A stretch of DNA of 36,450 nt from positions 1 to 36,450 of the forward strand of contig JAUCBJ010004981.1 of NCBI GenBank assembly GCA_032718475.1. Direction: 5' to 3'. Below are positions 1,251 through 36,450 of the stretch, piece by piece. The notes beneath the pieces were generated by a model. That model was not told the origin of the DNA and searched no databases. It saw only the letters and a program-made list of their open reading frames with translations. This DNA is from Nemertoderma westbladi. Taxonomy: Eukaryota; Animalia; Xenacoelomorpha. The number at the start of each line of letters is the position of its first letter. Within the stretch, counting starts at the first letter, position 1. The translations under genes and the position numbers were made by a program.

Positions 1251-2198
1251 GTTAGATTCAATACAGACCTTATTAAATGACCTTCAGTAATACTAATAAT
1301 AAATAAACTGGATTGAAAGTTATGAAGAAGACTGTTACAAACTATGTCAATATAAAACCGAAAATACATCAAATTACAGCTAACACTGTTCTTCAAATAA
1401 CCCCATACCTCATATTATTATAGATAAAATTATTTAATCATTGTGTAGAAACAATCACTAGTACTGTACTCACTGTACTAAGGTCGATGAGAACCACACT
1501 ATTTGGAATAACATATTATTATGCCAAATATTTTGATAACAATTAAACATTTGAATTTATTATGTGCCACACAATGCTAGCACTGTCTATTACTACGAGT
1601 ATTACTATGGCATTTGGTAATCTAAACTTACCAACGGTTGTTCATATCAGATATAGTTCTATTAATAGTTTATTTAAAATAATTGACTCATCTGATAATT
1701 CTATAGTTAGGACTATTCGTAATATGTAAGTAAGAAATACTTACTGCTGCTGAATAGAGTTGCCTCTTAGTGTCTTCAGGTCCTTCTAGGACTGTATATA
1801 TACTGTATTTATATGTAACAAAACATATACAAAAACAATTAAATTTCTGTAACTAAATGTATTAGTTCTAGAACAAAATTTATTTGTAAATATAATACTA
1901 ACATGGACACTCACAAAATAGCTAGCTTCTACCTTTTATGATAGAGCTACTACCTCATAATCATCCATTACGGCCACGAATTTGAACAATTCTTTGGCCA
2001 TTTTTGCGAAATTTTGCAAACTTTATTAATATTATTTATTAATACTTATTATAGGTAGAACTACGGAAACATCAAAATTTCTGGAAGGCCTAAACAAATA
2101 CATGATGGACGTCTAGAATATTATTTTATACCATCCGGACCATGAACATATATATATACACCATACGGACCCCCACCTCCCCCCCCCCCCCCCACCCC

Positions 2199-3000
2199 CC
2201 CAAATTTTTCTACAAATCTTTATCATATTGTTTGAAATTTGAAACACAACTAGTTCAACTCACCGTGGTTGTTACAATGAAGCCGGAATTTTCTATTTCG
2301 CCTTTAAATTTTATTGATAAGCGTTTTAAAAAAGTGTCTTTTGCGAAATCCCACCCTCTGTATCATTGCCATTCTTCACTTTAGTCGTAATTTTTTCACA
2401 TCAATAATAGAAAGCTTGCGTTGAAAGGATTCCAAATATGTAGCAATATCTGAATTTCGTTGAGAAACAGCTGAGAAATAGGCATTCAAAGATTGCAAGA
2501 ATTATTGTTCACTGCAGGCCATTTATTCCTTTTAATAAATACACAATATTCTAGAACGTGTTATTTATTTTATGAGTTGGTATACAACAGCGGTATGCCT
2601 ATACAATATCTATATTGCCTTGCTAATCATACATAAACAAATTGTTCCAGAATATTGTGTATTTATTAAATAGAATAAATGGCCTGCAGTGAACAATAAT
2701 TCTTGCAATCTTTGAATGCCTATTTCTCAGCTGTTTCTCAACGAAATTCAGACATTGTTACATATTTGGAATCCTTGCAACGCAAGCGTTCTATTGATGT
2801 GAAGAAATTACGACTAAAGTGAAGAATGGCAATGATACAGAGGGTGCGATTTCGCAAAAGACACTTTTTTAAAACGCTTATAAATAAAATTTAAAGGTAA
2901 AATCGAAAATTCCGGCTTCATGGTAACAACCACGGTGAGTTGAACTAATTGTGTTTCAAATTTCAAACAATATGATAAAGATTTGTAGAAAAATTTTGGG
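2199..3000. repeat. Long inverted repeat (foldback): arms about 2199-2557 and 2644-3000, 86-bp spacer
   Basis: The arms are reverse complements, >90% identical by eye. This is why ORFs 2142..2384(+) and 2814..3062(-) translate almost identically. Probably derived from a non-autonomous DNA transposon. Confidence 0.9.
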
Positions 3001-3185: not shown

Positions 3186-5254
3186 ACTTCAAATAGTTCT
3201 GTGTCACCTTCAACAGTAGGCACAAATGTTGTCGAACCATTGCATACTGATCTGATTGCTGCAATAATTTCATCAGGAATCCCGTATAATGAAAGTATGC
3301 TGAACATATGTGAGCGAGAGACTGAATCAAAGGCCTTGAAGAAGTCAACAAAGATAACAGCCAGATTTCTGTCTTTCTTTTTTGAGAACTCTTCAATTAT
3401 CCTTCTAAGTGCCAAAATGGGCTCCATGGTGCCACGACCTTTACGGAACCCATTCTGATTTCCATGGGACAGTCTCTCATAAAATTCTATTGTATAGCTT
3501 TGCAGCAATCGAGATCAATGAAATTCGCCGAAAAGAACCATAGAGTGTTAGGTTGCCCTTCTTGGGAACTGGCACCAACTTATTTGTTTTCATTTCTTGT
3601 GGGACTCTTGTTGTTCGGTACATGTCTACTATGATGGGATAGATGAGCTTTAAACACTCAGGTATTTTAAAGACCTCAGGGGGAACACCATCTACTCCAC
3701 TGGCACGATTGGTCTTAATGCTCTTTGCAGCAGCCTTCACTTCTGCAAAGGAGATATCGCCAATGGGAATGTCTGGGAGTACAGACTCAGACACTTTTAC
3801 TTCTATAAAGTTATCAGGCAATACCCTGTCATTATTGAGGAGTTTTTCAAAGTGGGCTTTCCAACCATTGAGGCGATCGGCTGGTGAATCAGCCTTAACC
3901 TTGGTGGTTGGTTGGCTTTTCCGCCCAGTAAGCAGATTGATCGATTTCCATGCCTGGGATGATTGCCTGCTGTCGTCAGCATCATTGATGGCATCAACCT
4001 GTTGGTTTATTAGCTCCTGTAGATTAGCAGAGTACTGCCTGTTCAGGGACCTAGATGCAGCCTTAACTGCATTCTTGGCCGCTGTAGTCTGTTTGAGTCG
4101 GGACTCTTTCTGCGCCTTATGGAGGTCATTTCGGCACTTCTGAATTTTGTTGTCAGTCCAGGGGGCCCTTTTCCTCTTTCGAGGGTATACAGGAACTGTT
4201 TCTGCAGCTGCTAACTTAACTGCTTCTGTGAAGGCAGTATAGCCCTCACAGTGATCTGCCGCCTCAGAGGCAAGAGCATCATACCTGTTGCTCAGCTGTA
4301 GTGTGAAACTGGATCTCACACTTGGCTGTTGCAACAGAGAGGACCAGTCATGCCGCGGCAAGGCAGATTTCGTTGTTCTGCTAGCACGCAGACTAAGTCT
4401 TACCTTAGCCACAATAAATACGGTGGTGATCACTGGAGAAGGGTCGAAGTGCATTCCAGTCTTGTATAGAGCTCCTGTATTTCTGGTAAAACAGAATATG
4501 GTCTATCTGGGACTTGTGACCACTGGGTCCACTATGAGTCCATAGCTTTCCAGTTCGCTTCTTGAACTGGATTCCACCCGAAAACAATCCATTTCCAGAG
4601 ATGAAATCCTGAAGATGGACGGAATTTCGGTTAACACTATTGCTATAGACCCAGGGTGATATAGGTGATTGATGCAGACTTGCATTAAAGTCTCCCAGGA
4701 ATGCTAAGAATGCATGCTGATCCACTCCATCAGTGGCTGCTTGTAGATTGTGGTAGAAATGTTCCACCTTCTCTACAGGGGCAACACTAGTTGGAGAGTA
4801 GCACACAATCAGAACCACCTTAGGAAACTTCTTAGCCAGTCTTCCAGAACATGAGAGGTGGCAACGGATGATGCAGTTAGAGATTTGGTCTATTTTGTCC
4901 AATGCTGCATGTGCAGTTGGATTCATCAATAGACCAATTACACCATTGCCACAATCATCTGCTGATGGGAGGGCGAGTCCCCAACCACCCCCCATGTCCT
5001 TAATCAGAACCTCATCAATCTGTCCAGTCTGCATTCGATGTTCCTGAATACTCACTGTGCTAAGAGAAAGCTTAGGGTCTATAGGTCATGGCCTACAACT
5101 ATAATCGGCCTGCAGCATTGAAACTGCGCTTGAGATGCTACGTATTTGTGGGTCCTCACCTGGGTTGTAGCCAAGGAGCCACCCAAGCATATCGACTGGA
5201 ATCTGGGCTAGCAGAGGCAGAGAACAGATCCTTAGGGTTGTAGTGTTTCTCTCC
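3186..5254 (-). mobile_element. RTE-clade LINE, 5' half (APE endonuclease plus N-terminal RT), frameshifted, 3' part missing
   Basis: SIQEHR, CYSPT, LGDFNA, SQIDHIL and SDH (APE). Then GVDGVPPE, VPVPKKGNL..RRISLIS, QNGFRKGRGT and FVDFFKAFDSV (RT). Homology stops at ..GDTELFEV (3186). 5056-5254 is inferred to be its 5' region. Confidence 0.88.
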
Positions 5255-6293
5255 AGTACGATGGTTCGACAACATTTGTGTCTACTGTTGACGGTGACAC
5301 AGAACCATTTGAAGTGTTATGGGGCGTCCTCCAAGGAGACACACTTGCACCATTCTTGTTCATTATTGTGGTTGACTATGTTCTACGCATGTCCTTAGAT
5401 CATCATAATGATGATGGGGTGATGATAACTCCACCTACTGGCTCCAGAAGTTGATGAAATCTTGCCAAGTACCTAACTGATCTAGACTTTGCTGATGACT
5501 TAGGAGTACTCTCAGAATCATTAGAGGGAGCCCAACGGCTCCTCGGCTCATTATAACATGCTGCTTCTAGTGTTGGTCTTTTTATTAACTCCAGAAAGAC
5601 CAAAATTTTGACAGTTAACTTTGAAAGTCCTCAGCAAGTCTCTGATCGGATGAGCATAAGCTCAAAGGATGGTATGCTTGAGCATGTGGACGACTTCTGT
5701 TACCTGGGATCATGGATCCAGAAGTCAGGTGAGTAATATGTAAGGGAAAGGCATGGGCAGCCTTAAAGAGGCTTTCCAGGATTTGGAAGTCACCGAGAAT
5801 TAATCGGAAACTTAAGGTCCGATTATTTAGAGCAGCAGTAGTTCCAGTACTCCTCTACGGGAGTCCATGCTGGGCTCTAACTGCTGAGGACACCAAATCT
5901 CTGGATGGCACATTCACAAGAATGCTACGCCGGGTTCATTGTGTCAAGTACAATGCACACATCTCCAACCAGACACTATATAACATTGGAGGTGTCTCAT
6001 TGGTTCCCTCAAGCTTGACACTAGAACAAAATCGCCTCCGCTTTGTAGGACATTGCTTTCACCATGAGGACCAGCCAGTGCATAATCTTGTACTTTGGCA
6101 GCCTCATGGTGTGAATAAGCATGGTGGACAGCCCATGACTTTCTTGAGACGCATCTTTAAGGACACTGGCCTTGAAGATGTGGATGATCTAGCAAATGTT
6201 ATGGGTGATAGGGAGTTGTGGCGGTGCAATTTTGTTGACCGGCACAGCATTCTTAAAAATGCAGCTGCAATGCAGCATGCCGATCCTAGTAGT
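5255..6293 (+). mobile_element. 5'-truncated RTE-clade LINE (C-terminal RT to 3' tail) with target-site duplication
   Basis: GVLQGDTLAPFLF, DLDFADD, GLFINSRKTK, DFCYLGS and RLRFVGHC, with stops and frameshifts. Ends in a TAGTAGTA tail. Flanked by the direct repeat TTTCTCTCC at 5246-5254 and 6296-6304. Confidence 0.9.
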
Positions 6294-6680
6294 AATTTCT
6301 CTCCCTGGAACATTGGAATTATGTGGAAGATCTGAGTATCTGCTGTATCAGTGTCAGTTGGTATTGTTTATTGTTTTGGTTAAAAAAAACCGATACTGTA
6401 ATCTGCTCCTTTCCCTTAAGTTAAATTAAATGAAGTTTTTAAAGCCACAAAACACATATTTGGTGAATTGCGCCATTAACTTCTCGAGGTACATCACAGG
6501 TTAGTTTTTGAAGCCTGTGTTTCGCTAATTACTACAGTATGATAACCTCTGAACAATTATTATCATAAAACAAGTTAGATGACTATATCACAATCAATAA
6601 ATTAATTGAATTATTATTAAATTATTGTTTCTTATGATTAATTTCATATGATAATATAATTATTTATTTTAAATATTCAG

Positions 6681-6922: not shown

Positions 6923-8399
6923 GTATGATACTGAACCAGGGTATTCTAAACAACAGCCCTGGCAACCTACTAGAACAGTAGTGTTTACCGTAATGCAGTA
7001 CTATGCATTTTTAATGTTCATTCTTAAATAATAATAATGATAGTTTGATAAAATGTAGGTTAGATAGTTGCTGCTTAATTATCCGACACTTCCCTGGAAG
7101 TATCACCAAACAGGCATAAATAATTTAATCCCACCTGTTGTTGATTGGCTGACTGGCAGCTCATGCTCAGCCATGTATCATTTACTAGGCTGTTCATGGC
7201 GGTCTTCTTAATCATGTACGGTATAATTATTGTTTATGGTTGTCTGGTCTAATCACTGAAACATTGGCATACTTATTAGCCATTTGTGGTGGTCCCTAAC
7301 GTGCTACGTGAAGACCACTGCTTCAGTTTTTACTGTATGCTGTTAAAATTCTATATACTGTGTACAAATACTGCTATATTGTAAAAGGCGGGAAATTCAA
7401 ACAACAGCTGTACCGTTACTTTTGTTCATTGTGTCTTACTTATCTGTATATATAGAATAAAGGTTTTTGCATTCAGATTATTTCAGTTCAGCATTCACAC
7501 TGTCGTATCCTAACCCTCAGGTACTGATCCATTACACATTACACTAATTAATTAGCCTAATATTGTATTTACCCAGTAGAGTATATTAAGACCAAGGTGC
7601 ACATAGCTGGAAAGCTATAAACAATATTATAATAATGTACATTGTTTACTGCAGTTGAAAATACACCTGTCATTCTAGGCTTCCAGTTTTCTCTAGCACT
7701 CCTGCGAACATTAAGTTTTCTAGGCCTACATGTGTAAAATATTTTTGTAATTAATTTCATATGTTATTTGTAGATATTTATTTTACTACTACAGTTACTA
7801 CTACTTGGCATCTCACTGCTAATTAAGGTTCACCCAGGCAGAGTTGGATAGTTCTGAAAGAGGACAATTATCGAAAGCTAACAAAAGCTACTGAAAGTAA
7901 TGCGAAAATTATCGAAAAGGTTAAAGCAGGGGCGAAAGCTATCCATCTACTGATAGGGGTCACATTTTGCACTTTCAAACTTCAGACATTCATAAACAAA
8001 TAAGATATGGGCTCTAATTCAAATATTTGCCGTTTAATTTGAAATAAACCTTTGCGAAACATACTACATTCACCGATGCAGTACACCAGTAAGGATTGTT
8101 GTAATACAATGCTAGACTAGGCTACTGCAGTAGCAGTACTGGGGCCCTCCCTACTCATGTACTCTGCTACCATCAGATTCAGTCCGGTTACTGTCTGACC
8201 GCATGGCGGCGCATTACTGCATTACAGCATTAAGGACTGAAGGATGGCTTACAGTACAAACTGAGTACTGGTAAATTTTCCACCAATACTTAGTTATTGC
8301 CATGGTGGAAATTCCAGACGAGGTAGGACTGCAATATATGTGAGCGATTCTTTGAAAGTATCTGAATGTCCTGAGTTCCAGATTGTGGGACTCAAGAAC

Positions 8400-10940: not shown

Positions 10941-11085
10941 CATTCATAGCAGCATTTAATTTGAATTTAAATTTTGAATTGAATTTTAAGACTATGACTT
11001 TTCAACAAATTTATAGAAAAATGATCATCCTCAACATCATTAACCAACAATCAAAATAGTATTCGTGAAGCAATCCACCAGCACC

Positions 11086-12303
11086 TGTAAAAGCTTTTGT
11101 GGGATAACTGATTCGTTTGCCTTGTTGGCCAGTTCCCCCCCGGTCGCTAGAATACTCTAAAGGGGATCTATAGTTAAAATAGTGCAAGCTACCAGCTTAT
11201 TGGCTGATTTGCTGTACGCAGGTATCTGGGCTCTGTTTAATCGGCCAACCAGCCTAAGAAGGTTGCGTCATAGCCTTGTTTTGTATCTCCCAATAGAATT
11301 TGAGTTAGCCTTGATTTTGACCTATCACAGAGCTACTGAACTGAAATTTTCCTATCTCACTGCTCTTTCTCTGTGTTGAACGGGAGCTTCGTGGAATAAG
11401 GGTAGTTGGTATCCTCGTATAGAGCAGTAGTCACGAGTTTTTCAAAGCCACGAAAGAACGGCTTTGTAGTGTTTTGTGCTTTCTGCTTTTTAGCTCAACA
11501 CTAGTAGGTTTAATTATAAGGACATATATCCTTTAACTCATGGAAACTCATGGAATCACTGATCTGTGAATACTGCTGACACACGGCTTTTAATAACTGC
11601 TGAAACTGCTAAAAATTACCTGCTCAATCAATACTGTATACTGCTATTTGTTGTCGGTTATTCATTATATTTGTTGATGAATTATTATATTGGAATAACG
11701 AGAAATAACCCCGACACCCAATATTCTTGATATACCGAAGGTAAGAGAGAAAGGTTACCAATAACGATTGTGACTTATGTTAAAGTGGTTTGAAGTGAAT
11801 CTAATGTTATTTGATAGACCCTACATGAGTCAGTCTGTGTTCCTTTTATATGTGACTAAAATCAGTGAAGATTGGCAGATTAGTGTGCAGTATTGTGCAG
11901 CATTGTGTATGAGTGAGTCTGTTAAAGAAGCATTTCCTAAAGAATGCGCTATATATGTGAATTATAATTAAGCCATATCGTTGTGAGTAGTTTAAGTCAT
12001 AACTCTGTTTATATAGATAAAGCGCCACGTCCTAAAGGAACTGTTAATATTCCCGAAGGTGAATAATATTGTCAGAGATTATATAATACTGTCAGTCGAA
12101 TAATACATTAGGCTTACATAGCAATAAAATTAAACCGTCGAACCCAATCTCCCGGGAATATCCAGCGGGTGAATGATCGCGCACAGATTGGTTTCGACTA
12201 GTGTAGTGAATCAAATACTTCTCATAGGCTAAAAAGCGATTTAATATCTAGAAGACATCTTAATTTGGCGGGTTAAACTGCCAAAGGTCTGAAAGCGCGA
12301 ACA
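11086..12303 (+). repeat. 5' LTR
   Basis: TGTAAAAGC...GCGCGAACA; direct repeat of 21537-22754. I found only two substitutions by eye (about 11243 G/A and 12221 C/G). AATAAA at 12123-12128. Confidence 0.97.
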
Positions 12304-12315
12304 TTAAAGGATATA
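12304..12315 (+). promoter_or_regulatory. Primer-binding-site position; non-tRNA sequence complementary to the element's own LTR
   Basis: TTAAAGGATATA directly follows the LTR-terminal CA and has no TGG. It is the exact reverse complement of TATATCCTTTAA at 11525-11536 and 21976-21987. Confidence 0.6.
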
Positions 12316-12382
12316 GCTTCTTTATTGCAGTAAGCAATAAAGTTGAAAGTACCGGTCAACCGGTAAACCTGAAAGGTACATC

Positions 12383-12497
12383 TGTAGGTCAGTAGGCCCA
12401 ACTGCCAGAACCGGTACTGCCGTAGGTCCGTAGGTCCAACTGCCAGAACCGGTAATTCTGTAGGTCCGTAGGCCTAACTGTCCTAACCGGTACTTCC
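12383..12497. repeat. 38-bp tandem repeat, 3 copies, in the LTR-element leader
   Basis: Unit approximately YGTAGGTCCGTAGGYCCAACTGCCAGAACCGGTA(N5), starting at 12383, 12421 and 12459. Confidence 0.9.
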
Positions 12498-12676
12498 CGT
12501 ATAAGTACATTAGTATTATTCGATTTTGATAGTTATATACCGGTAGGCCTTAATAATTAATCAGGGACTGCAGCCCTGGTTTTTTATTGAGATTTTTACT
12601 TATTTCTGTCAAGTTTTATTTGTTTGTAGGCCAGTATTGAACAGAAGGCGTGTAAGCCTGATCAGATTGTACAGAC

Positions 12677-13240
12677 AATTTGTAGGCTGAGCTGTTGTCT
12701 GATTGCTGTTAAGTCTGAACGGATTGCAGTGTGTGTAGATCATCTGTCCGATTAAGTACGGTTAGGAAGTAGGGGCAGCGAATGCTGTAAGGTAAACCCC
12801 CAACTAAAGAATAAGTCGTACTACTGGGTTAGAACGCATACTCCCTAATCATTTCGGAGTCTGCATGTCCTGTAGTTTATTTAGGCTTGAGAGTAGTCTG
12901 CCATCGTTTAGTCTGTACTTTGTTTGTGTAAGTCTGTACGGGTAGCGTATAATTTTATTTAGATAATTTGTAGGCTGGATAGTTGTCTGGCTGTTATTAG
13001 GCCTGAGCGGATTGCAGCGTGTGTAGATCACTTGTCCGATAAAGAACGGTTAGGAAGTAGGGGCAGCGAATGCTGTAAGGTAAACCCCCAATTAAAGAAT
13101 AAGTCGTACTACTGGGTTAGAACGCATACTACCTAATTATTTCGGAGTCTGCATATACCGTAGTTTGTTTAGGCTTGATAGTAGTCTGTCAGTGTTCGGT
13201 CTGCATTTTGTTTGAGTAGTTTGTACGCGTAGCGTAATAT
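12677..13240 (+). ncRNA. Tandem pair (period about 288 nt) of a structured cis-RNA module: long G.U-rich stem topped by a near-invariant core
   Basis: Units start at 12677 and 12965. Stems of 12, 29, 10, 5 and 12 bp can be drawn, and substitutions between the copies preserve pairing (see findings). Family unknown. Confidence 0.65.
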
Positions 13241-14180
13241 TTATTATTCAGAGTTTATGCGATTATTCGCAACATTCATTCCCCAAGTTTGTTCCTACAG
13301 TAATTGTGTTTGTTATACATACCGCTATAGTTAAATTAACCCCGGTACTACACGGGCTGCTTGGCGTAGGTAAAGACTGGTGATTTTGTGCATCGGTCAC
13401 TCCAGCAGATGCCGTGGTTCTTTTAGCTGTTCAAGTATATTTAACTACTGATTATCTGTTGTACAAGTACTCGTACCTAATTTAGGGTTTAGTGTACAGT
13501 GCTTTCCGAGAGTAATTAGTGTAGGCATTATATTTGTGTTGTAAAGTGGTTGATAGGCACGTTCGATTAGCTCTATTAACTTCTAGGTAGGAACACTCCG
13601 TGATACATAACGTAGAACCTATAGCGATACGGCTATAGGTCGTCAGGCGGTGGTATTTTCCTATCTAGACAACGCAGTGTATTTACTACTACTTATTATT
13701 TCAAATACCGCATTACCCTGTCCGTTGTAATAACCAGAATTCTAACCCTTTGTTAGGCTGGTTTGTAGACTTCTTGTAAAATTACCCTAAAAATTCGTAT
13801 TTTGTGTTTTGTAAATTTTTATGTTTATTTAGAGATTGTAATCTCACCCGAATTGTATGTAATTTGTAGTATTAAGTAACTTAGGTAAATTATAATTATT
13901 TGTTTTAGTGTCCTATAAGTAACACCTCACTGAAAGCGCACCGCTTTGTGTAGTGATTACTCCCCAGAAATAATAACATTTATTTCAAACATTGACTAAA
14001 CCCATTAAAACGGGTATATATATATTATAAATCAAATCTAACGATTTATAAACAGTAGGCCTACCATATAACCATTAGGTCTCAATATCAGTTGGACTAC
14101 TGCTCAAATAACGGTAATAAAGTAAGTAGAGTAACCAAGTAACCCTAAAGTTCAGAAATTCAATTATTTAAAATAATTGA

Positions 14181-14395
14181 TATACCGGTATTTATGATAG
14201 GCCTATTATCTTTATTTCTATAAATTTAGGCTGAAATTATACCGGTACTTGTAATTAATTCTAGTCCAGAATTATATATACTACAAACTGTAAGCTGTAT
14301 ACCGGTATTCCCGATAGGCCTATTATATATTTATATATATTTGTGCTAAAATTATACCGGTATTCTGTGATAAACCTAGTCTGTAATAATACTTA
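14181..14395. repeat. Degenerate tandem duplication of about 117 bp in the LTR-element leader
   Basis: TATACCGGTATT..GATAGGCCTATTAT...AAATTATACCGGTA..CTAGTC recurs at 14181 and 14298. Confidence 0.75.
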
Positions 14396-14602
14396 TCAAG
14401 CATCTTTATCATTATCATTATCTCTTTATCATCCTTATCATTAGCAATTATCTTAAGCATACCGGTATTTAATATATTATATATATCACGCTACACTGAG
14501 TAGCAGTATCGGTAATTAATTACTAGGCTAGCAGTTAATACTGAATTACTAGACTTGCTCAGACTGTAATATAGCAGTAGGCATTCAACTGTACTCACAA
14601 AT

Positions 14603-17600
14603 ATGTCTGATACTAAGCAGAACCTGTCAGACAGTCTATTAGATGTAACTATCTGCGACTCAGATAGAGGTGTAGAACCCTCTAGTCGTAAGTTCAGTTC
14701 ACCTCCCACTGTGAGGAAGGTCATCCCTCCAGTAGTAATAACAGAACCTAGGCTAGTCCAACATCGTAGGTCTATCATAGGCACCCGAGCTCAGGTCAAG
14801 CGGGACCAAGAAGCAGCGGAACAGCAACAACCCGCGAGTCAGGAGCTTGTTACTCAGCGGCCCAGCAGCTCCAGTAGTGAGGATACTGTAGAGCTGACAC
14901 CCGAGCGCGGAGCAGAGATGACGGATGCGGTTTATACGGATCCCCTTCTCATCCTTCCTGCAGCCGTACTCACTAGGTTATTGATCGCGGTGGAAGAACA
15001 CCAGATCGATTGGGCGAGAAGTCAACGACCAACTAGAGATAGTTATGCGGGATACACGAGGGAAGAATTGAAGTCTATTGTCGAGTCGCAATGGAACTTC
15101 CCCGGACCCGGACTCCCGTTTGATTTATCAGAAGCTGCCTGGGAAGACATACACCGGATGGGAGTAGCCAAGGAAACCATCGATCCAGCTGTGTGGAAGA
15201 GGTCCGCAGCCGGATACGCACAGGGATTCTTCAGCTCTATGGAGCGAGTAGAAAAACAACTGTTTAAACAACCTCAAGGACCTCAAGAGCAGGGACAGCT
15301 GCTTTATCAAGTTAGAGAAAGAGTTCTGCGGATTAGGCTAATCTTATCCGCCTTTGAGGAGGCTTCTAAAAGAAAACAAGACACGTCGTTGCAAGTTGCC
15401 GTAAAGACTTGGTTTCAACGGGTGAGTCGCCAGGTTCAAGGAGCAGCTCAGTGGAAAGCTCAGTTGGAGGAGCGCTCAACCCATGGAGAATCAACAGACG
15501 CTACTTTTTCCCAAGTGGAAAGTGAAGCGACGGCAGAGAAACCGCATAAGAAGGATGCCATTGACATCTATCTGTCAGACTATCAGCGTTTTTTAGGAGA
15601 TGACGAGTTGAGGAGAAGGCTGGAGGGACTTAGCCCTAACAGCGAAGGAGCCAAACTTGTGTTAGATGCAATTGATGTGGATAGGTTAGCGGCGAACCAA
15701 GCTAAATTCGATGAACAACTCCGCATCGCCAAGGTTCAAGAAGAACAAGTAAAGAAAAAACGTATAGAAGATAGAAAGACAGCAGCAGCGGCAGTGGCAG
15801 CGGCAGAAGCGGAAAGAAAGGCAGCAGAGGCAGCGGCAGAGGCAAAAGCGGCAGCTGCAGCAATGAAAGCGGCAGCGGCAGAAGCGGAAAGAAAGATAGC
15901 AGTGGCAGAAGCAGAACGGAGGGCATCTGAAGAGACAACCCAACTAGAGTTGGAAAATCTTCAAGAGAGGCAAGATAACTTTAATAAACAGTTAACAGCT
16001 AGTAATATGCAGATGATGAATCGATCTACTCCCAAACGACAAGGTTATACATCATCTGAGGAAGGCGATACCACCGACACTGAAGGCGGAGGAAATCGAT
16101 CCCGCCTAAGCAGACGTAAAAGAACATTCCACCGTCAGAAATTGCCTGATTTGCCTCCAGCTGTTAGAAGGCAACTAAATAACACCAACTTAGAGAGTAC
16201 AGAACCCACAGACCAAATAATTACAATAGAAAGACTCCCTACTATATTAGATGAGCCTGAAATAAGTAGGCCTGTTCTTGAAATCACCCCTTCGGTAATA
16301 GATACACCTGTGCTCCCTGAAGCTACCTATAAATTCCCTCTGCATAGCACTAAGCTACCTGTGCCCCGTAGAACTGCCCAGGAGACAGTTCAGGTCCTGG
16401 ACCCCGAGCGAAATATTCCAAATTTGTCGCCCGTTGTCCCTCGTCTGCCCGCTACGACGTTGGCGGATCCCGTTTCGGCGGTTGATTGGGTAGACGAGAG
16501 ACGGCGGGGGATGGATATTCTCCTCGGAGAGATGAAGGAGAATCGGATACGCTCCTCCCAACAGGTCCGAGAGTTGGAAGGGACTGTCCAACATTTAAAG
16601 GGAACAGTGAGAGAAAGTAAGTTAGAGTTGCAAGAAGTGCAGCAAAATATCGCGCTAGAGCGCGATAAATTAGTAAATTTACAAAAGGGTATACCACCAC
16701 CCCCTGTAACAATGTGTCAACCCGTTAGGTCTGAAGTATCTCATGCGCAAGGTGTGGAGCCTACACGCATTTATACTGCTAGCGAAGTAGAAACTCCTAT
16801 AGTGAACCCTATTAAGGGTAATTATAGACCTGTTGATAATGATATTCCATATAGAACTGATCATAATCCGAGAAATTTATATACCGATAACTCGATATTA
16901 AATAACACGATGGCCCAAGAAAGTTTTACGCGTCAAATGGCTAGAACCGAAGCCCGGCAAGCGGTGAAGGTGGGAGAGATCGTCAAGTTCAATGGAGATG
17001 AGATGAAATGGTTACCTTTTAATGAATTTTACAAAGATAACATACAGAACTCTGTACTATCTAATGGAGAGAAACTAAGATTCCTCATCGAATGTTTGGA
17101 AGGACCTCCCAAGTCAATGGCGTTAAAATTTATTGGACATCCAGATGGATTAAGACAAGTTTGGGATACACTAAACATCAGGTATGGTAATAGGACTAAC
17201 ATAGCTAGGTATTTATATGCGAAATTAATGGCGCCCTGAAAGTTTCTTAGCAGCGGGATTATAGAGTTTTCCGATGAGATTCAGGAGATCTGTAGACAAC
17301 TAGATTGGTTAGGTAAGTCTCATGAATACCAGAATTCTATGGTTGTAGGAGCCTTAGCATCTACTTTGCCCAAGGGTGGAGTAGGTACACGCTGGGACAA
17401 GAAGGTGTTATATATGATGGAACAACAACAACGAGACCCTACCATGGCTGATCTCATGTCATTCTTAGATGGAGAAGTGAAATTACAGCTCCTAAGACAG
17501 TCCAGAGAGAAGACACTGGAAAACAAGGTAAGTGAGAAACCCGTCTCCAGAAGAAAGGTAACACCAGTGTGTTATACCGACGATGGCGAAAGCCAAGCTT

Positions 17601-18559
17601 CCCAAGGGGAGGATAGCGGGAAAGACACTGAAAGATCTTATTATGTCAATAAAATGCCTAAAGATCAGGTAAGTAAATCCAAGTCTCGACCCAATGACAG
17701 AAGGGAACCGGTACAAAAAACCCTTCCTACGTCTCCTAAAAGAATTCAGGTGAGAAAGCCCGAGGAAAGAACAAGTGTGCACCACATAGCACAGGTTAAA
17801 GTAAGTAACATCAAGCCGAAATGTGTGTTGTGCGACGGGCCCCACCGTTTAAATGCGTGTGATAAATTCCTGAGGAAATCACTCGAGGATAGACGTGAAG
17901 TCATGTGGGATAAGCGGTTGTGTTATAATTGCCTCAGACGAGGACACCAACGGCGAACCTGTAACTCCGACGCAAGGTGTGCAAAGTGCGGCGCAAAACA
18001 TCATATCTTGTTGCACACGGAATTCGAACGAAACAGCCCGAGTCAGGTAAGTGAGTCCGAACTACATGTCCAATTCAGTGATGTGAACGACACTGATCAA
18101 TCTGAGATGGAAGGATTCTATACGGACGAGTTCTCCGACCAAAACGAATCCTGTTACCTAATAAACACCACCGCAGTGTATCGAGTACTCGTGCATGAGA
18201 AAGACACAGACAGCGACCTTACCTTAACTACTTCCGATCAACAACCATCTTGGAAAGCGCCAACTTCCAATATAGGAATCCGAGAATTTCCTGTAGTCCA
18301 GTTACGGGTCCACGGACCTCAGAAGAGCTATATAGTGAACGCCCTCCTGGACTCCGGTAGCACAGGAACATTCATCGATAAAGAACTAGCCGAAGTCATC
18401 TTTGCTGGACAACCCAAGTTCCGAACCAAGCTAAACATGTCAGGGATCATATTCGTGTTTATTGCGTACGTAATTACGTATATATTATATTTAGTGCGAC
18501 GGCAAGAAATAATTCTTTTCCTTCTTCCTTACTGTCCGTATTACATTACAAATACGTAA
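14603..18559 (+). CDS. gag: BEL/Pao Gag-protease reading frame with one in-frame TGA (17237-17239); protease truncated near 18447
   Basis: ORFs 14603..17239 and 17339..18559 share a frame with no other stop between them. DUF1759-like KFNGDEMKWLPF...EKLRFLIECLEG...LNIRYGN. Knuckles CVLCDGPHRLNAC, CYNCLRRGHQRRTC and CAKCGAKHHILLH. Protease VNALLDSGSTGTFI, after which the frame runs into AT-rich sequence. Confidence 0.9.
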
Positions 18560-18844
18560 CTACAGTAAGATGAAATGTCCGTACTTATTAAAGTACAATA
18601 AAGCCACTACTATATTTAAGTATTATTGGTAGGCAGAGTATTAGGAATGCAAAGTTCAGATCCTCGTGTCTCGGCTAAACCAAGCTCTGGGTAGACCTTG
18701 GAAACGACTTGCCTCTTCACACTGACATTGCTTCGTGCGATATTGCTCTCATACCGTATATTAAATAATACATATAGTAGCGTGATGTCCCTTTAACAGT
18801 AGCGTATCACGCAAAATAAATCTGTTAAACCCTTTGACCATCTG

Positions 18845-19122
18845 TAATTCTAGTCGATTAAGATATCGCGGCACCCACCGATATACTTGAAAGACAAATT
18901 CTAGAATCAGTGGTTAACGTCCCCAGACAAGTTCTGGAATAAATCGGTGCCCATCTCAAATATTAATTATTTAATATTTGCAAATCTAATAAATCAAAAT
19001 CTGTAAAATTCAGATCCTTCAGCAATTCTAGTCAATTAAGATATCGTAGCATTTACCGATATTCTTAAAAAGACAATTGTCATAGAATTAAGGATCTTGT
19101 GTCCCCAGACATATTCTAGAAT
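18845..19122 (+). repeat. Two diverged copies (about 18845-18940 and 19023-19122) of a hairpin-forming ~95-nt unit
   Basis: Both copies keep the ATTCTA/TAGAAT, GTC/GAC, TTAAG/CTTRA and ATATCG/CGATAT pairings, followed by GTCCCCAGACA. Confidence 0.7.
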
Positions 19123-19757
19123 CAAAATATGTCAACTTAATTATCAAATAATAAAATTTCAGGGAATAAATTTAAATTCATGCCTTTTAATGAATTTAAT
19201 AAATTGCCATTTTTACGCAATTTATAACATTCCCAAAATTCCATTAATTAATAGATCAAGGGAGCGGAGATTTATCTTATTATGTGTATGAGTGTGCGAA
19301 AGTCTCCCAAACATAGTCAATAGCCGATAAAATTCATAAAGTCATGTATAAAACAGAACATTGACTATTAAAGAATACTATTAAATAACATCCCAGATCT
19401 GTATGCATTGGAATTACCCTAATTCTACCGCTAGCTTTGCATAATGTCACCATAGCAACAACCACGCTAGAATTAGAATTGAGTTAAAAGAACAATAGAA
19501 AGCTTGTCCCATTGAATAGCATAGGGAATAAATAGCGCACTACTAGTATCCAAGGATACATAATAATACAGTGACATTCTGGAAGGCATTGACTAACGGA
19601 CAAATGGCCCGAATGTGTGTAGTTGTGACCAGTTGTGTGGTATTTGTGAGTTTATAGGTGAATGTTACTGCTAAAGTGTGTTTACAGTAGCTAGTCGCAA
19701 TCGTAAAAGTAACCTAACTCTCCAAGGAAAACCTGAAGTACATCTAAGCCTTTGGGA

Positions 19758-19903
19758 CGGACAGTTGAGTGACTTGTGCCGGTTGTCGTTGTCGTTGTGC
19801 GGCTACGTCGTTGGCGAAAGTACAGCGGCGACGACAAATCGGCGCTGAGGATCTCGTACTGTCCGGGGGTTGATTGGGGTAGGCAGCGACGCCCGCTCGC
19901 CTA
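19758..19903 (+). ncRNA. Long G.U-rich RNA hairpin (19758-19865) plus a small hairpin (19880-19903), upstream of the extra ORF
   Basis: CGGACAGT/ACTGTCCG outer stem. GTGCCGGTTGTCGTTGTCGTTGTGC pairs with GTACAGCGGCGACGACAAATCGGCGC using several G.U pairs, which work only on the + strand RNA. Confidence 0.6.
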
Positions 19904-19922
19904 AATATAAACTCATTATAAT

Positions 19923-21458
19923 ATGGATAAACTCATATATAGCAGATATGACGGAGTTGATAGAAGATGGTCTTGGTATCGGGGAACGATATACTCTACT
20001 TTCAAACGTTTGTTTATAGCTTGATACGCGGTGATACTAGTCCAACTACTACGAAGGATGATGGTCGTTATATCGAACCGCCAATGTCCCAAGAGCAGCT
20101 CACGCGTGAGTTGGACTATAAGAAATTCACCGCTCGCTATACGCATCGTAATGGTACGTATGTGGGCTTCTTAACTACTGGTCATCCTATCGATTTACAC
20201 GATACGGACAATGTCGACACCAAAAGGGAAATGGTACGATTGAAATATCCTTCCCAGCGGAGGCGGAACGATAAACCGAGAATGGAACACGAGAATTCTA
20301 TTCGAAACAGACTCGAAAGAGAAGACGTTGAGGAGCCGGATAAACGCAGCGACTTCAACGATTATCTGGAATTCCTGATAGAAACATATCTCAATATTGC
20401 CAGTCAACAAAATCTAGAAACTCGATATCCTCAAGGTATCACATCCCATGGTAGAACTCAAACGGCTCGATTCCCCTATGATGTATCTTACCGCCGATCG
20501 ACCGCTACCTGTTGTACCGAATAGCTTCGAACGGATGGAGGAATATTGTAAGCTGGAGAAAGATCACTCGCGTTTCCCCTACAAGACGTACGTTTTTGGG
20601 TATTATTACGGTAAATGCCCTAGACCCAGCCAATAAACGGAAAGACATAAACATCCACGGAAACGTTGTGTTAAACACAGTTGTGTTCGTTATATTTACT
20701 GGAGTTTCGAGCGAAACTTGTTTGACGTATCACCTATGCTCACTCGGCTCTAACGATCCTAGAGTAAACCTACGATCAGAGTCCCGGAATACTCGGTCAA
20801 ACCTCCTCATTCCTTAGTTGGACCTCAGACCTGCGATCCTGGTGGTGTCGCGGATCCTCGCGGACGGTATTCACTGTTCAAGATCTAGTGCTACCCTAAC
20901 AATTAATCGGTAACACTCCGACAGTGATTTCTAGCTAGCCGCCCATCTTACCTAGCCGGATTATGACGCAGACACCTAATATCACTATCCAACCGTATGG
21001 TCGTCCCGTTTAACGCAATACAACCCTTCATCAAGGTGAAGGAGAGCGTTGTACGAAACGAGTTAAACGCTATTCTATAAAGATCAAAAAAGAAACCTGC
21101 GTTTGTTCAGACAAACGTAAGTTATAACAGTAAGTCCAATCGATAAACGAATTGGCCTTATCTCAGTTCGATTGGGAAACCTCGAATCTCAAAGAAGATA
21201 TCAAGCTTAGAAAACCCTATTCTCTGCGAGAGTTTTGGACGAACGTATCCCATGACAAGCGGAGGAAAATCAGCTCGAGGAGAAGCATATCGAAATGGAC
21301 GAGACACCGACCGTAAACCCAAACCTTTTAATGCAATCATATTGCACCCTTCACCCAGGAGTTATGGCCCTCCTAGTAAAGTGGCTTCCCCCAAAGAGAA
21401 AATGACTCTTGCTAGCTTTAAAAAACTGCGTAAACGCCGTCCGCGCAAGAAAGACTAA
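19923..21458 (+). pseudogene. Probable decayed extra ORF of the LTR element (env position), product unrecognised
   Basis: Balanced base composition with overlapping + strand ORF pieces (19967..20524, 20448..20636, 20512..20817, 21252..21458). Ends KKLRKRRPRKKD* just before the PPT. No domain recognised. Confidence 0.45.
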
Positions 21459-21528
21459 CTGTTTAGAGTATTTTTATATTTTAGAAACTGTGATTTGGTA
21501 TATTTTATAGACTTAAATCCCATTTTCT

Positions 21529-21536
21529 GGGAGCGG
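21529..21536 (+). promoter_or_regulatory. Short polypurine tract (plus-strand primer)
   Basis: GGGAGCGG immediately 5' of the 3' LTR's TG. Confidence 0.6.
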
Positions 21537-22754
21537 TGTAAAAGCTTTTGTGGGATAACTGATTCGTTTGCCTTGTTGGCCAGTTCCCCCCCGGTCGCTA
21601 GAATACTCTAAAGGGGATCTATAGTTAAAATAGTGCAAGCTACCAGCTTATTGGCTGATTTGCTGTACGCAGGTATCTGGGCTCTGTTTAATCAGCCAAC
21701 CAGCCTAAGAAGGTTGCGTCATAGCCTTGTTTTGTATCTCCCAATAGAATTTGAGTTAGCCTTGATTTTGACCTATCACAGAGCTACTGAACTGAAATTT
21801 TCCTATCTCACTGCTCTTTCTCTGTGTTGAACGGGAGCTTCGTGGAATAAGGGTAGTTGGTATCCTCGTATAGAGCAGTAGTCACGAGTTTTTCAAAGCC
21901 ACGAAAGAACGGCTTTGTAGTGTTTTGTGCTTTCTGCTTTTTAGCTCAACACTAGTAGGTTTAATTATAAGGACATATATCCTTTAACTCATGGAAACTC
22001 ATGGAATCACTGATCTGTGAATACTGCTGACACACGGCTTTTAATAACTGCTGAAACTGCTAAAAATTACCTGCTCAATCAATACTGTATACTGCTATTT
22101 GTTGTCGGTTATTCATTATATTTGTTGATGAATTATTATATTGGAATAACGAGAAATAACCCCGACACCCAATATTCTTGATATACCGAAGGTAAGAGAG
22201 AAAGGTTACCAATAACGATTGTGACTTATGTTAAAGTGGTTTGAAGTGAATCTAATGTTATTTGATAGACCCTACATGAGTCAGTCTGTGTTCCTTTTAT
22301 ATGTGACTAAAATCAGTGAAGATTGGCAGATTAGTGTGCAGTATTGTGCAGCATTGTGTATGAGTGAGTCTGTTAAAGAAGCATTTCCTAAAGAATGCGC
22401 TATATATGTGAATTATAATTAAGCCATATCGTTGTGAGTAGTTTAAGTCATAACTCTGTTTATATAGATAAAGCGCCACGTCCTAAAGGAACTGTTAATA
22501 TTCCCGAAGGTGAATAATATTGTCAGAGATTATATAATACTGTCAGTCGAATAATACATTAGGCTTACATAGCAATAAAATTAAACCGTCGAACCCAATC
22601 TCCCGGGAATATCCAGCGGGTGAATGATCGCGCACAGATTGGTTTCGACTAGTGTAGTGAATCAAATACTTGTCATAGGCTAAAAAGCGATTTAATATCT
22701 AGAAGACATCTTAATTTGGCGGGTTAAACTGCCAAAGGTCTGAAAGCGCGAACA
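21537..22754 (+). repeat. 3' LTR
   Basis: 1218-bp copy of 11086-12303, followed by the TSD GCACC. Confidence 0.97.
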
Positions 22755-22940
22755 GCACCCCCCCCCCCCCCCCCCCCCCACCCCATTCCCCCCATTCCTG
22801 TCCCTCTCCGAAAATCCTTCCCACCCCTAATCCTGCTGTCTATTGTGGCTCACCCCAATAGCACTAGCTGCGCTATTTGTTGCGGTGAGTTGCTGAACCA
22901 ATTAAATTTTTTATTATTTTTTTATATACATTGTGCATGT

Positions 22941-24473
22941 TATAATATATTGCTGTATGTGCAGCAGAATGAAATAAATACAAATATATTGGTATTCAAG
23001 GGATAGTGCAGTGGTGAGGCCTACAGGTTTTACTATCGCCGTGTTATCAGTACTAGAATCGAATATTGCTTTAAAAATATTATAAGAGTTTTTAATGAAT
23101 AGACCATCATCAATGCTGTAATGCGCCCCCACATGGTCAAGGGGGTAGCTGGTCTGATGGTGTAGCAGGGTAGGGACTGTAGTACTAGTAGCCTACTGGT
23201 AATCAAGTAATGGAATGCAGGTCAGACCTAATGAACAAGCCTAGCACTCTTGTAGTTTAGAGAGAGCTTACTCTTCGTGAATTAATATTTCGCGATGGAA
23301 TATTTGAATGTAAAAGGGAATTATTTGAATTAAAGCCCATATCACTTTTGTTTATGAATGCCATCGAACAAAGAAAGTGAGAAATGTGCACCCTATCAGT
23401 GAATGGATATCTTTCACCCCGACTTTAACCTTTTCGAATTCTTTCAGTAACTTTTGTTAGCTTACGGTAATTGTCATCTTTCAGAACTATCCAGCAGAGT
23501 TTCTCCCTCCCAAAAAAACATTTTTTAGGAGAGTTTAAAAATGGCTCTGCAAAATAAGGAAAATTGTTAATGTAACGCAGACCAGTATATGAATTGCGTT
23601 AATTTATATATTTATTTCTAGTTGATTAATAGTTACCAAAATATATACATGTAAAATTACTACATTGACCAACATCTAAATAATTATTTATTAAAATATT
23701 CAAGCAGCCACTTTACAAAATCATTTTAAATACAACAATTTAACAACGTCAACAACGCATCTTTCAACAACGTAATCTTCAACAATGTATTTTTGCAGAT
23801 TTATCTGACAAACAACACTGACCCAGCACTCCTCAACGGTCTTGGTGGAAGTGTTACAACTCCTTGTGGGACACTAACTGGCAACAATGTGGATTTAATT
23901 AATTGCAAAGGTGATGTTGGACGATATGTTGTTTTCTTCAATGATAACGGCCAGATCCAAAACTTTTGCGAAGTAAAAGTGTTTAATACATTCCATCCAT
24001 AAAAAGCATACGATTACGATTATAGCATATTTATATATAAGCCAAACTTATCTAACTATCTAACTATTTATTACAATTAATTGTTTGACTACAGTATTAC
24101 ATCAAACGTCAAAGAAATTAAATTCATTTATGGAAAAACTTGAGATTTATTATACAACCTTATGAAAAACTTTCCTCAACGATATAGCATAATCGTAGTG
24201 CAGAACTACTTCTATTTATTTGTTGGTGCCTATGAGAAGTGCGGAATAGCGAATAATATCGAGTAACATCCACTCTAAGTCCGTAATCTACGAATCAATA
24301 TGACCACAAGATTGGGTATCGTCAGTTTGTATCAGTCTTGTTTAAACGCTTAGTAACCAAAGAGTAAACAACAAAAATAAAAATTATAACTAAAATAATA
24401 AATACAGAGGATAATCTATTTATGTGTCACATTTCATGCGATCTTATTAATATTAAACTAAATAAAACAGTAA
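22941..24473. repeat. Segmental duplication, copy 1 (about 1.5 kb; copy 2 is 30121-31640)
   Basis: Collinear, with a few SNPs and small indels. Contains the MULE right TIR, the lectin terminal exon and the 3' UTR. Confidence 0.95.
23799..24002 (+). CDS. Terminal exon, C-terminal half of the F-type lectin domain (copy 1)
   Basis: ttttgcag|ATT, phase 0, matching the donor at 6922. Translates IYLTNNTDPALLNGLGGSVTTPCGTLTGNNVDLINCKGDVGRYVVFFNDNGQIQNFCEVKVFNTFHP*, with the C..GRYV and CEVxVF motifs. Confidence 0.92.
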   Translation: MYLTNNTDPALLNGLGGSVTTPCGTLTGNNVDLINCKGDVGRYVVFFNDNGQIQNFCEVKVFNTFHP

Positions 24474-30120: not shown

Positions 30121-31640
30121 TATAGTGTATATTGCTGTATGTGCAGCAGAATGAAATAAATACATGGTATTCAAGGGATAGTGCAGTGGTGAGGCCTACA
30201 GGTTTTACTATCGCCGTGTTATCAGTACCAGAATCGAATATTGCTTTAAAAATATAAGAGTTTTTAATGAATAGACCATCATCAATGCTGTAATGCGCCC
30301 CCACATGGTCAAGAGGGTAGCTGGTCTGATGGTGTAGCAGGGTAGGGACTGTAGTACTAGTAGCCTACTGGTAATCAAGTAATGGAATGCAGGTCAGACC
30401 TAATGAACAAGCCTAGCACTCTTGTAGTTTAGAGAGAGCTTACTCTTCGTGAATTAATATTTCGCGATGGAATATTTGAATGTAAAAGGGAATTATTTGA
30501 ATTAAAGCCCATATCACTTTTGTTTATGAATGCCATCGAACAAAGAAATGAGCACCCTATCAGTGAATGGATATCTTTCACCCCGACTTTAACCTTTTCG
30601 ATTACTTTCAGTAACTTTTGTTAGCTTACGGTAATTGTCATCTTTCAGAACTATCCGGCAGAGTTTCTCCCTCCCAAAAAAACATTTTTTAGGAGAGTTT
30701 AAAAATGGCTCTGCAAAATAAGGAAAATTGTTAATGTAACGCAGACCAGTATATGAATTGCGTTAATTTATATATTTATTTCTAGTTGATTAATAGTTAC
30801 CAAAATATATACATGTAAAATTACTACATTGACAAACATCTAAATAATTATTTATTAGAATATTCAAGCAGCCACTTTACAAAATCATTTTAAATACAAC
30901 AATTTAACAACGTCAACAACGCATCTTTCAACAACGTAATCTTCAACAATGTATTTTTGCAGATTTATCTGACAAACAACACTGACCCAGCACTCCTCAA
31001 CGGTCTTGGTGGAAGTGTTACAACTCCTTGTGGGACACTAACTGGCAACAATGTGGATTTAATTAATTGCAAAGGTGATGTTGGACGATATGTTGTTTTC
31101 TTCAATGATAACGGCCAGATCCAAAACTTTTGCGAAGTAAAAGTGTTTAATACATTCCATCCATAAAAAACATACGATTACGATTACTTACAGGATATTT
31201 ATATATGACTATCTAACTCTTTATTACAATTAATTGTTTGACTACAGTATTACATCAAACGTCAAAGAAATTAAATTCATTTATGGAAAAACTTGAGATT
31301 TATTATACAACCTTATGAAAAACTTTCCTTAACGATATAGCATAATCGTAGTGGAGAACTACTTCTATTTATTTGTTGGTGCCTATGAGAAGTGCGGAAT
31401 AGCGAAGAATATCGAGTAACATCCACTCTAAGTCCGTAATCTACGAATCAATATGACCACAAGATTAGGTATCGTCAGGTTGTATCAGTCTTGTTTAAAC
31501 GCTTAGTAACCAAAGAGTAAACAACGAAAATAAAAATTATAACTAAAATAGATTATCCTAAATAATAAATCCAGAGGATAATCTATTTATGTGTCACATT
31601 TCATGCGATCTTATTAATATTAAACTAAATAAAACAGTAA
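30121..31640. repeat. Segmental duplication, copy 2
   Basis: Direct repeat of 22941-24473, starting at the TA that follows the mariner TIR. Confidence 0.95.
30963..31166 (+). CDS. Terminal exon, C-terminal half of the F-type lectin domain (copy 2)
   Basis: Nucleotide-identical to 23799-24002 by eye, with the same acceptor ttttgcag. Confidence 0.85.
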   Translation: MYLTNNTDPALLNGLGGSVTTPCGTLTGNNVDLINCKGDVGRYVVFFNDNGQIQNFCEVKVFNTFHP

Positions 31641-35400: not shown

Positions 35401-36450
35401 CTTTACAAGGGTAAGGGCCCAAAGTATTCTCCAGATTCATATAGGGGTATCGCTTTACTATCTTGTATGCTAAAGACATACACTGCAATCCTATACAATA
35501 GGTTATCAGTTGGGCCGAATCTCATAGAAAACTCCCAGATTTGCCAATACGGATTCCGCAAAGGCCCTACAGGCCACGAAGTGCCTCGTCACAGTCATCC
35601 GCCGGGACCTGAGTAAAGACCATGGCAGTGTTTATTGCGTTTTTGTGGACTTCTACAAGGCCTTTGACTTGGTCAATCGCAGAAAATTGTGCCTCAAGTT
35701 ATCGCTTCTTGGTGTGAGTCGCTACTTTATTGCTGCATTATGGGCATTAATGGCAACGCACTTTGTATGTATTTGTTTGGGAGCCTATGTTATGGAATCA
35801 ATTATGCAGACAATTGGGGTGATCCAGGGAGACAAACTCTCACCGCTTCTCTTCTCCCTCTTTCTCGCCGATCTCCCTGCTGTAATACTAGCAGCCTGTT
35901 GTTTTCTCTTCATGTACGATGACGACGTCGCAATTACCGGGAAATCAATCACAGATATTCAAACAGCCCTTGATAATTTGTCCGACTACTGTACAGTAAA
36001 CGACCTCATTGTAAATATCGGGAAAACAAAAGCAATTAAATTTCGTCGGGCCAGTCGCCTCTGCAGGTCAGACGTTCTCAGATACCGGGGTGTCCCACTA
36101 GAGTTTGTCAACTCTTTTCAATACCTCGGCGTAGTTCTCACTACAAAGGGTAGTACAGCCATCTACATAAACGCGGCATTTCCGCATGTATGAGGTTGGC
36201 AACCAAATTAAACTTTAGTTTCATCTCCATGGCAACAGCGGCCCGTCTGTGGAAGCTAGTCATCCTCCCCGCAACAACCTACGACTGCTGCGTCTACGGG
36301 CTGCGTCACCCACATTGAAACGGTAAGGGCGTTCTATTGGAAACTGTGGTGGGGCGTGAGCAAATACGCGTCCACCACAGCTGTATTAAACGCCATTGAC
36401 AAGGCACAGACAGCGAGCGACTCATCTCTCTCGCTCGGATCACTGGTGGG
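32402..36450 (+). mobile_element. Degenerate RTEX-like non-LTR retrotransposon (ORF1 plus APE/RT), runs off the window end
   Basis: ORF1 has a coiled coil, then IRVG*LKPETTTDMVKTHL...VFHPTTWPQGATMRRHF (RRM-like). APE: WNFEG, LLLTET, SAYYRP, LVGDFNCR, GQSVIDL. Then KPWFDKEC. RT: YRGIALLS, QYGFRKG, VDFYKAFD, GVIQGDKLSP, YDDD (for YADD), FQYLG. The clade call is by eye. Confidence 0.85.
33369..33844 (+). repeat. GC-rich 30-bp tandem repeat, about 16 copies, inside the LINE and in frame with ORF2
   Basis: Unit approximately CCGCCCTCTCGGCGGACTCCGGCGCGACAT; encodes SALSADSGAT-type 10-mers. Confidence 0.92.

Follow-up and report, generated by a model that had tools for sequence, protein, structure and literature searches.

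We identified a young, non-autonomous BEL/Pao retrotransposon in Nemertoderma westbladi that probably primes its minus-strand DNA with a 5′-LTR piece of its own RNA and not with a tRNA, a reading that we hold with moderate confidence. That the element primes itself in one form or another we consider distinctly likely. The case is built on a 12-nt match between the primer-binding position and the LTR, and on self-matching primer sites in distant BEL/Pao families.

A young BEL/Pao element without pol

The DNA analysed, here called the window, is the 36,450-nt stretch from position 1 to 36,450 of contig JAUCBJ010004981.1 (N. westbladi assembly GCA_032718475.1), and the features of the element all lie on its forward strand. 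The element (11086–22754, ~11.7 kb) is bounded by a 5′ LTR (11086–12303) and a 3′ LTR (21537–22754), each of 1218 nt with TG..CA ends, which are unlike at 2 of 1218 positions (11243 and 12221). Both flanks carry the 5-bp target-site duplication GCACC (11081–11085 and 22755–22759). Given the near-identity of the LTRs and the intact duplication, the insertion is therefore recent. The polypurine-tract position (GGGAGCGG, 21529–21536) abuts the 3′ LTR, whereas the purine tract of relatives is mostly GGGGCCGG. Public DNA contigs, which come from three studies under one organism label, contain the element's family in many variants. A long poly-C run (22758–22782) directly adjoins the insertion point.

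A non-coding leader of ~2.3 kb (12316–14569), with a 38-nt repeat in three copies and a 288-nt repeat in two, precedes gag. The latter is a single frame from 14570 to ~18448 that is interrupted once, by a stop codon (17237–17239) within DUF1759. Its first part (14570–17239) spans 889 codons stop to stop, whilst the second (17240–18448), in the same frame, encodes three zinc knuckles that are visible in the translation and the start of a protease (LDSGS), after which the likeness to pol stops. The DUF1759 match has a Pfam E-value of 3.9e-8. A search of 1.84 billion proteins returned closest Gag relatives that are mostly ~30% identical; these are Pao-peptidase polyproteins, with DUF1759 in all 14 that were scanned and Peptidase_A17 or DUF5641 in 11 of the 14. 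The assignment to BEL/Pao made in a first-pass annotation of this DNA is upheld by these domains and relatives.

Approximately 3 kb of sequence (18449–21528) replaces pol and contains short ORFs of no known family, and neither a Pfam scan nor tblastn with two BEL polyproteins found remnants of RT, RNase H or integrase in the element. Because pol is absent from this copy, the element is filed as a non-autonomous BEL/Pao derivative by its Gag. The pol-replacing stretch includes two ORFs, of 186 and 111 codons, that overlap (19964–20817) and belong to no known family, and the ORF at 19964–20524 has no match in Pfam or the Atlas. Rfam models gave no score near the gathering threshold over 11000–14600, and no tRNA genes were found within the 36,450 nt of the window.

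The primer site and its match in the LTR

The primer-binding position directly after the 5′ LTR (12304–12315, TTAAAGGATATA) contains no TGG. Its 12 nt are the exact reverse complement of 11525–11536 within the LTR, the candidate self-primer, and of the second copy of this 12-mer in the 3′ LTR (21976–21987); the perfect pairing covers exactly 12 nt. Both points had been made in the first-pass annotation and both are confirmed. Moreover, the match is unique, as no further match to the 12-mer was found in the window beyond the two LTR copies, even with one mismatch allowed. The polarity fits a primer, with the 3′ end of the 12-mer facing the LTR border.

A chance origin had also been called unlikely, and the controls agree. 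The expectation for such an LTR match is 3.2–3.7e-4 under Markov models of order 0–2, and among 9,196 internal positions 12304 alone reaches a match of at least 12 nt. Across the window as a whole, 7 of 33,893 non-LTR positions have a match of at least 12 nt to the LTR. Under a laxer rule, which accepts offsets of 0–4, one G-U pair and either contiguous or spliced matches, 2 of 400 control sites inside the element score as high as the primer site. A spliced primer for the N. westbladi element was rejected (best score 3), and a primer at the poly(A) site was set aside, there being no canonical poly(A) signal before 11536.

The earlier observation that the pairing ends exactly at the terminal CA of the LTR stands for the perfect match and is softened by the predicted fold, in which the A-U pair next to the LTR border reaches a probability of just 0.26; the exact end at CA may therefore be partly coincidence. 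Related public contigs diverge from the element right after 11535–11538 in 3 of the 15 joints listed (of 35), which is a weak hint that a block ending in the primer may have been kept. The weak last pair and this divergence together mean that the true primer end may be 11534–11535, which may leave a spacer of 1–2 nt and so resemble the relatives described below. The 40 letter differences listed from the public contigs, out of 698, include none in either 12-mer and are too few to inform. These contigs also show a 7-fold step in depth near 11720, which is not a copy number.

The MFE and centroid folds of 11523–12360 both contain the primer helix. For an RNA that starts at 11515–11525 the helix forms with P 1.0 when the RNA ends at 12345 and 0.17–0.89 with other ends; it has P 0.01 or less in unspliced RNA starting at or before 11505, and 0.01 if the RNA is extended to 12600. 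A strong splice-donor-like sequence, AG/GTAAGA (11740–11748), identified by motif only, would start an intron at 11742, ~200 nt after the primer, and if 11742–12228 is removed in silico from an RNA that begins at 11495, the helix rises to P 0.74. As long-range folds are unreliable, this evidence is weak either way. Position 12228 is variable in many public contigs, and a strong acceptor-like tract (11470–11494) lies 30 nt before the primer.

Two further predicted structures flank the primer site. A U5 stem (12174–12303, pairing 12174–12189 with 12286–12303; most pairs 0.86–0.99, end pairs 0.56–0.79) adjoins it, and a 9-bp hairpin (12320–12342) directly follows it. In addition, 11923–11931 is a 9-nt complement of the leader at 12316–12324 and a possible arm of a Tf1-like pretzel. 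This arm was noticed post hoc, 7 of 500 control sites are as good, and in 11 relatives it is weak or absent (best 14/500).

Distant BEL/Pao families

We surveyed 78 BEL/Pao loci from metagenome contigs, fetched with a BEL polyprotein alignment. In 13 loci, representing 12 families, comparison of the two LTR copies fixed the LTR 3′ end, and these form the counted set; the other 65 of the 78, in which this end was not fixable, were left out, and one further locus was a duplicate. Self-matches were scored by a fixed rule that allowed offsets of 0–4, no more than one G-U pair, and pairing that is either contiguous or interrupted by a consensus intron; the splice part of this rule was set after a first look at locus L044. 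For L055 and L076 the LTR end was adjusted on visual inspection (scores without this correction 7 and 9), and the 12-family set is without any TGG-bearing BEL control.

None of the 12 families has a primer site that starts with TGG and all 12 start with T, as does the N. westbladi element. In 11 of the 12 the site pairs with its own LTR over 10–15 nt, contiguously in three families and only across a predicted LTR intron in eight. For each of these 11 self-matches, no more than 1 of 400 control sites does as well, and primer sites swapped between elements reach a score of at least 10 in 1/180 contiguous and 1/180 spliced comparisons. An unconstrained scan of 68 loci was indistinguishable from its null (at least 11 in 26 of 135 swaps) and was rejected as proof. 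The primer-site sequences differ among families, except for those of L028 and L052, which are near-identical and therefore not independent. Site and LTR have thus changed together across families.

The intron-split families (L028, L042, L044, L052, L055, L062/L063, L067 and L083) have LTR introns of 76–164 nt with strong GTAAG donors and T-rich acceptors, and their primer sites match the exon-exon joint only. Contiguous primers occur in L013, L037 and L076, with L017, L035, L074 and L081 as leads. In the Gag tree the contiguous primers lie amid the intron-split ones, which suggests repeated loss or gain of an intron at the primer. Under the fixed rule L075 has no self-match; by eye it shows a 10-nt match across a non-consensus donor. 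Locus L032 has three identical LTRs in a row, ~6.1 kb apart, which may be an LTR-sharing tandem or an assembly artefact.

A consensus TATA is present in 3 of 11 relatives (3′ LTR copy), where it lies 132–166 nt upstream of the primer with none downstream. Therefore, the primer would lie ~100 nt or more inside the RNA and not at its cap. A primer away from the cap, followed by a spacer of 2–4 nt, is what these motifs suggest for the relatives, in contrast to Tf1. A looser TATA pattern hits both sides of the primer in L052 and L076. Nine of the 11 matching families have an A(A/T)TAAA signal, and in all nine, as in the N. westbladi element, the primer is located 5′ of it.

The element is distant from these families. 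A Gag-protease tree (61 rows, 386 columns, quick IQ-TREE) that included 26 of the surveyed loci placed it on a long branch, outside a 99%-supported clade holding all 26. Because its Gag falls outside their clade, the covariation seen in the relatives is no direct evidence for the element's own family. The geometry differs too, with offset 0 and a loop of 767 nt in the element versus offsets of 2–4 and loops of 62–278 nt in the relatives. Searching with the element's own Gag returned no close relatives from the metagenome contigs. No BEL proteins were found in viral contigs, and a search of those contigs for the LTR-end pattern gave 10 matches of 17 nt that are due to chance and have no likeness beyond them.

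Candidate priming mechanism and its alternatives

In the mechanism that we favour, transcription would start at or somewhat upstream of 11525, and 11525–11536 would fold back over the 767-nt loop onto 12304–12315, next to the U5 stem. A cut at ~11534–11536 by the RT-RNase H of an autonomous partner may then give a 3′ OH, from which RT would extend through U5 and R as far as the cut. This DNA would jump to the 3′ R, with which it would share ~600 nt if polyadenylation follows 12123, and the 3′ LTR would then provide the template for copying the primer region anew. A longer 5′ fragment may also serve as primer, paired through its last 10–12 nt only. Start, cut and enzyme are modelled on Tf1 and would hold by analogy; what is established comprises the element and its loss of pol, the pairing with its geometry, and a self-match of this kind in distant families. 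The first-pass annotation had proposed self-priming from a start near 11523–11524. Self-priming itself gains from the geometry, the missing TGG and the 11 of 12 self-matching families, whereas the TATA motif scans do not favour a start at 11525; self-priming would not need a start exactly at 11523–11524.

Where transcription starts separates this reading from one in which the 3′-LTR copy acts. Three consensus TATA matches (11950, 12010 and 12080; 11950–12087) all lie downstream of the 12-mer and before the sole AATAAA of the LTR (12123–12128), its likely poly(A) signal. This is the textbook U3-R-U5 order and would put the 12-mer in U3. With a start near 12040, 21976–21987 could pair with the primer site and either circularise the RNA or prime a second packaged RNA. 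The 767-nt loop of the 5′ model, which far exceeds the loops of the relatives, also speaks for this route. Against it, shuffled versions of the AT-rich LTR have a mean of 1.0 TATA matches and three or more in 46 of 500 cases, and a cut at 21987 would presumably remove the 3′ R needed for strand transfer, so that a second RNA would be required. Moreover, TATA is upstream of the primer in the three relatives with a consensus TATA, and the intron-spanning primers fit a 5′ exon. We therefore regard priming from the 3′ LTR as unlikely. Looser TATA matches in the LTR occur at 11169, 11418 and 11515, the last of which (TATAA) would start the RNA just 3′ of the 12-mer.

Priming by a fragment of a host RNA (a half-tRNA, another tRNA fragment or an snRNA), with the LTR match a chance event or a relic, would agree with the ICTV 2021 profile, which describes the Belpaoviridae as having an 18-nt site complementary to host tRNA-Arg or tRNA-Gly (PMC8742986). 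Half-tRNA priming is known in Ty1/copia lineages (available part of PMC6317226), and a single AT-rich 12-mer selected from a large scan can be chance. The site has no TGG, however, and so does not correspond to a mature tRNA 3′ end, and the differing sites of 11 families match their own LTRs, which makes a true self-match in a BEL/Pao element without TGG more probable a priori. We give a host primer a similarly small probability. Less probable still is a pairing that is real but structural or regulatory, serving in packaging, as a dimer contact or as a switch that hides the site, with priming by something else. The primer site does have competing partners in the predicted folds, as a switch would; nevertheless such a role supplies no primer, and a helix with the right polarity stands at the primer position in 12 elements. 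The fold-back of the 5′-LTR segment hence remains our preferred reading.

Self-priming has precedents in other elements. In Tf1 the first 11 bases pair with the primer site and RNase H cuts between bases 11 and 12 (PMC7175516, in part), within what has been described as a three-duplex pretzel (bioRxiv 2022.12.06.519325, in part). A further system is that of Tj1 (PMC4600332, in part), and the available part of PMC6317226 predicts self-priming for the plant Tcn1 and the copia TAR lineage, which belong to other superfamilies and other hosts than the BEL/Pao element. Like Tf1, Tf2, Tj1 and Tf1/sushi, the element is without a tRNA site and has a short LTR segment complementary to its primer site, and its predicted U5 stem and possible leader arm recall the Tf1 pretzel. 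Its Gag is of BEL/Pao type and it is therefore not a member of Tf1/sushi (Ty3/gypsy chromoviruses). Unlike Tf1, it has a loop of 767 nt and encodes neither RT nor RNase H, whilst the primers of the relatives are probably at least 100 nt inside the RNA, often intron-split and followed by a 2–4 nt spacer. The rule for self-priming given in the available part of PMC6317226, at least 10 nt of complementarity starting 0–5 nt after the LTR, picks out the element and three relatives and would miss the eight intron-split cases.

Within the Belpaoviridae, the element is typical in its DUF1759 capsid, three zinc knuckles, protease, TG..CA LTRs, 5-bp duplication and purine tract. It is unlike the ICTV description in having no 18-nt tRNA-complementary site, TGG being absent here and in 12/12 families, in its missing pol, and in its 1218-nt LTR and 11.7-kb length, which reach or exceed the upper sizes given there. 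We found no report of self-priming in BEL/Pao in the literature, where an earlier mention in subscription journals, Repbase Reports, GyDB or supplements is possible. The BEL-like family Cer7 of C. elegans is said to encode its own tRNA-like primer, which our literature search did not confirm. Term searches of the Sinbad paper (PMC554778) and of a BEL/Pao survey (PMC3118150) returned neither 'PBS' nor 'tRNA', and the available parts of PMC6934838 and PMC3601003 add nothing on BEL.

We put at about even the chance of a broader scenario, in which self-priming, independent of tRNA, is common in large parts of BEL/Pao, in at least two deep lineages. The primer would be cut from within the 5′ part of the RNA; in many families host splicing would first have to assemble it, and in the non-autonomous family described here the cut would be made in trans by the RNase H of a partner across the ~770-nt loop. 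If true, self-priming would reach a third LTR superfamily, tRNA priming as the ICTV defines it for Belpaoviridae would not hold for many members, and BEL/Pao elements without a recognisable primer site would be explained. Annotation tools would gain a further structural criterion, and host splicing would be coupled to the initiation of reverse transcription in the intron-split families.

Lastly, the window holds other repeats. A direct repeat of 1.5 kb (22946–24473 and 30128–31640; 95% alike, 7.2 kb apart) encloses arrays of 39-, 33- and 38-nt units, with no TG..CA ends seen, and part of it recurs inverted at 7845–8062. Inverted repeats of 395 nt (588–981 and 5907–6297; 93% alike) enclose a fold-back (2198–3000) and an endonuclease-bearing LINE fragment on the minus strand (3477–5085), and this unit looks like the shell of a DNA transposon. 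A LINE-type endonuclease and reverse transcriptase lie in pieces at 33779–36193.
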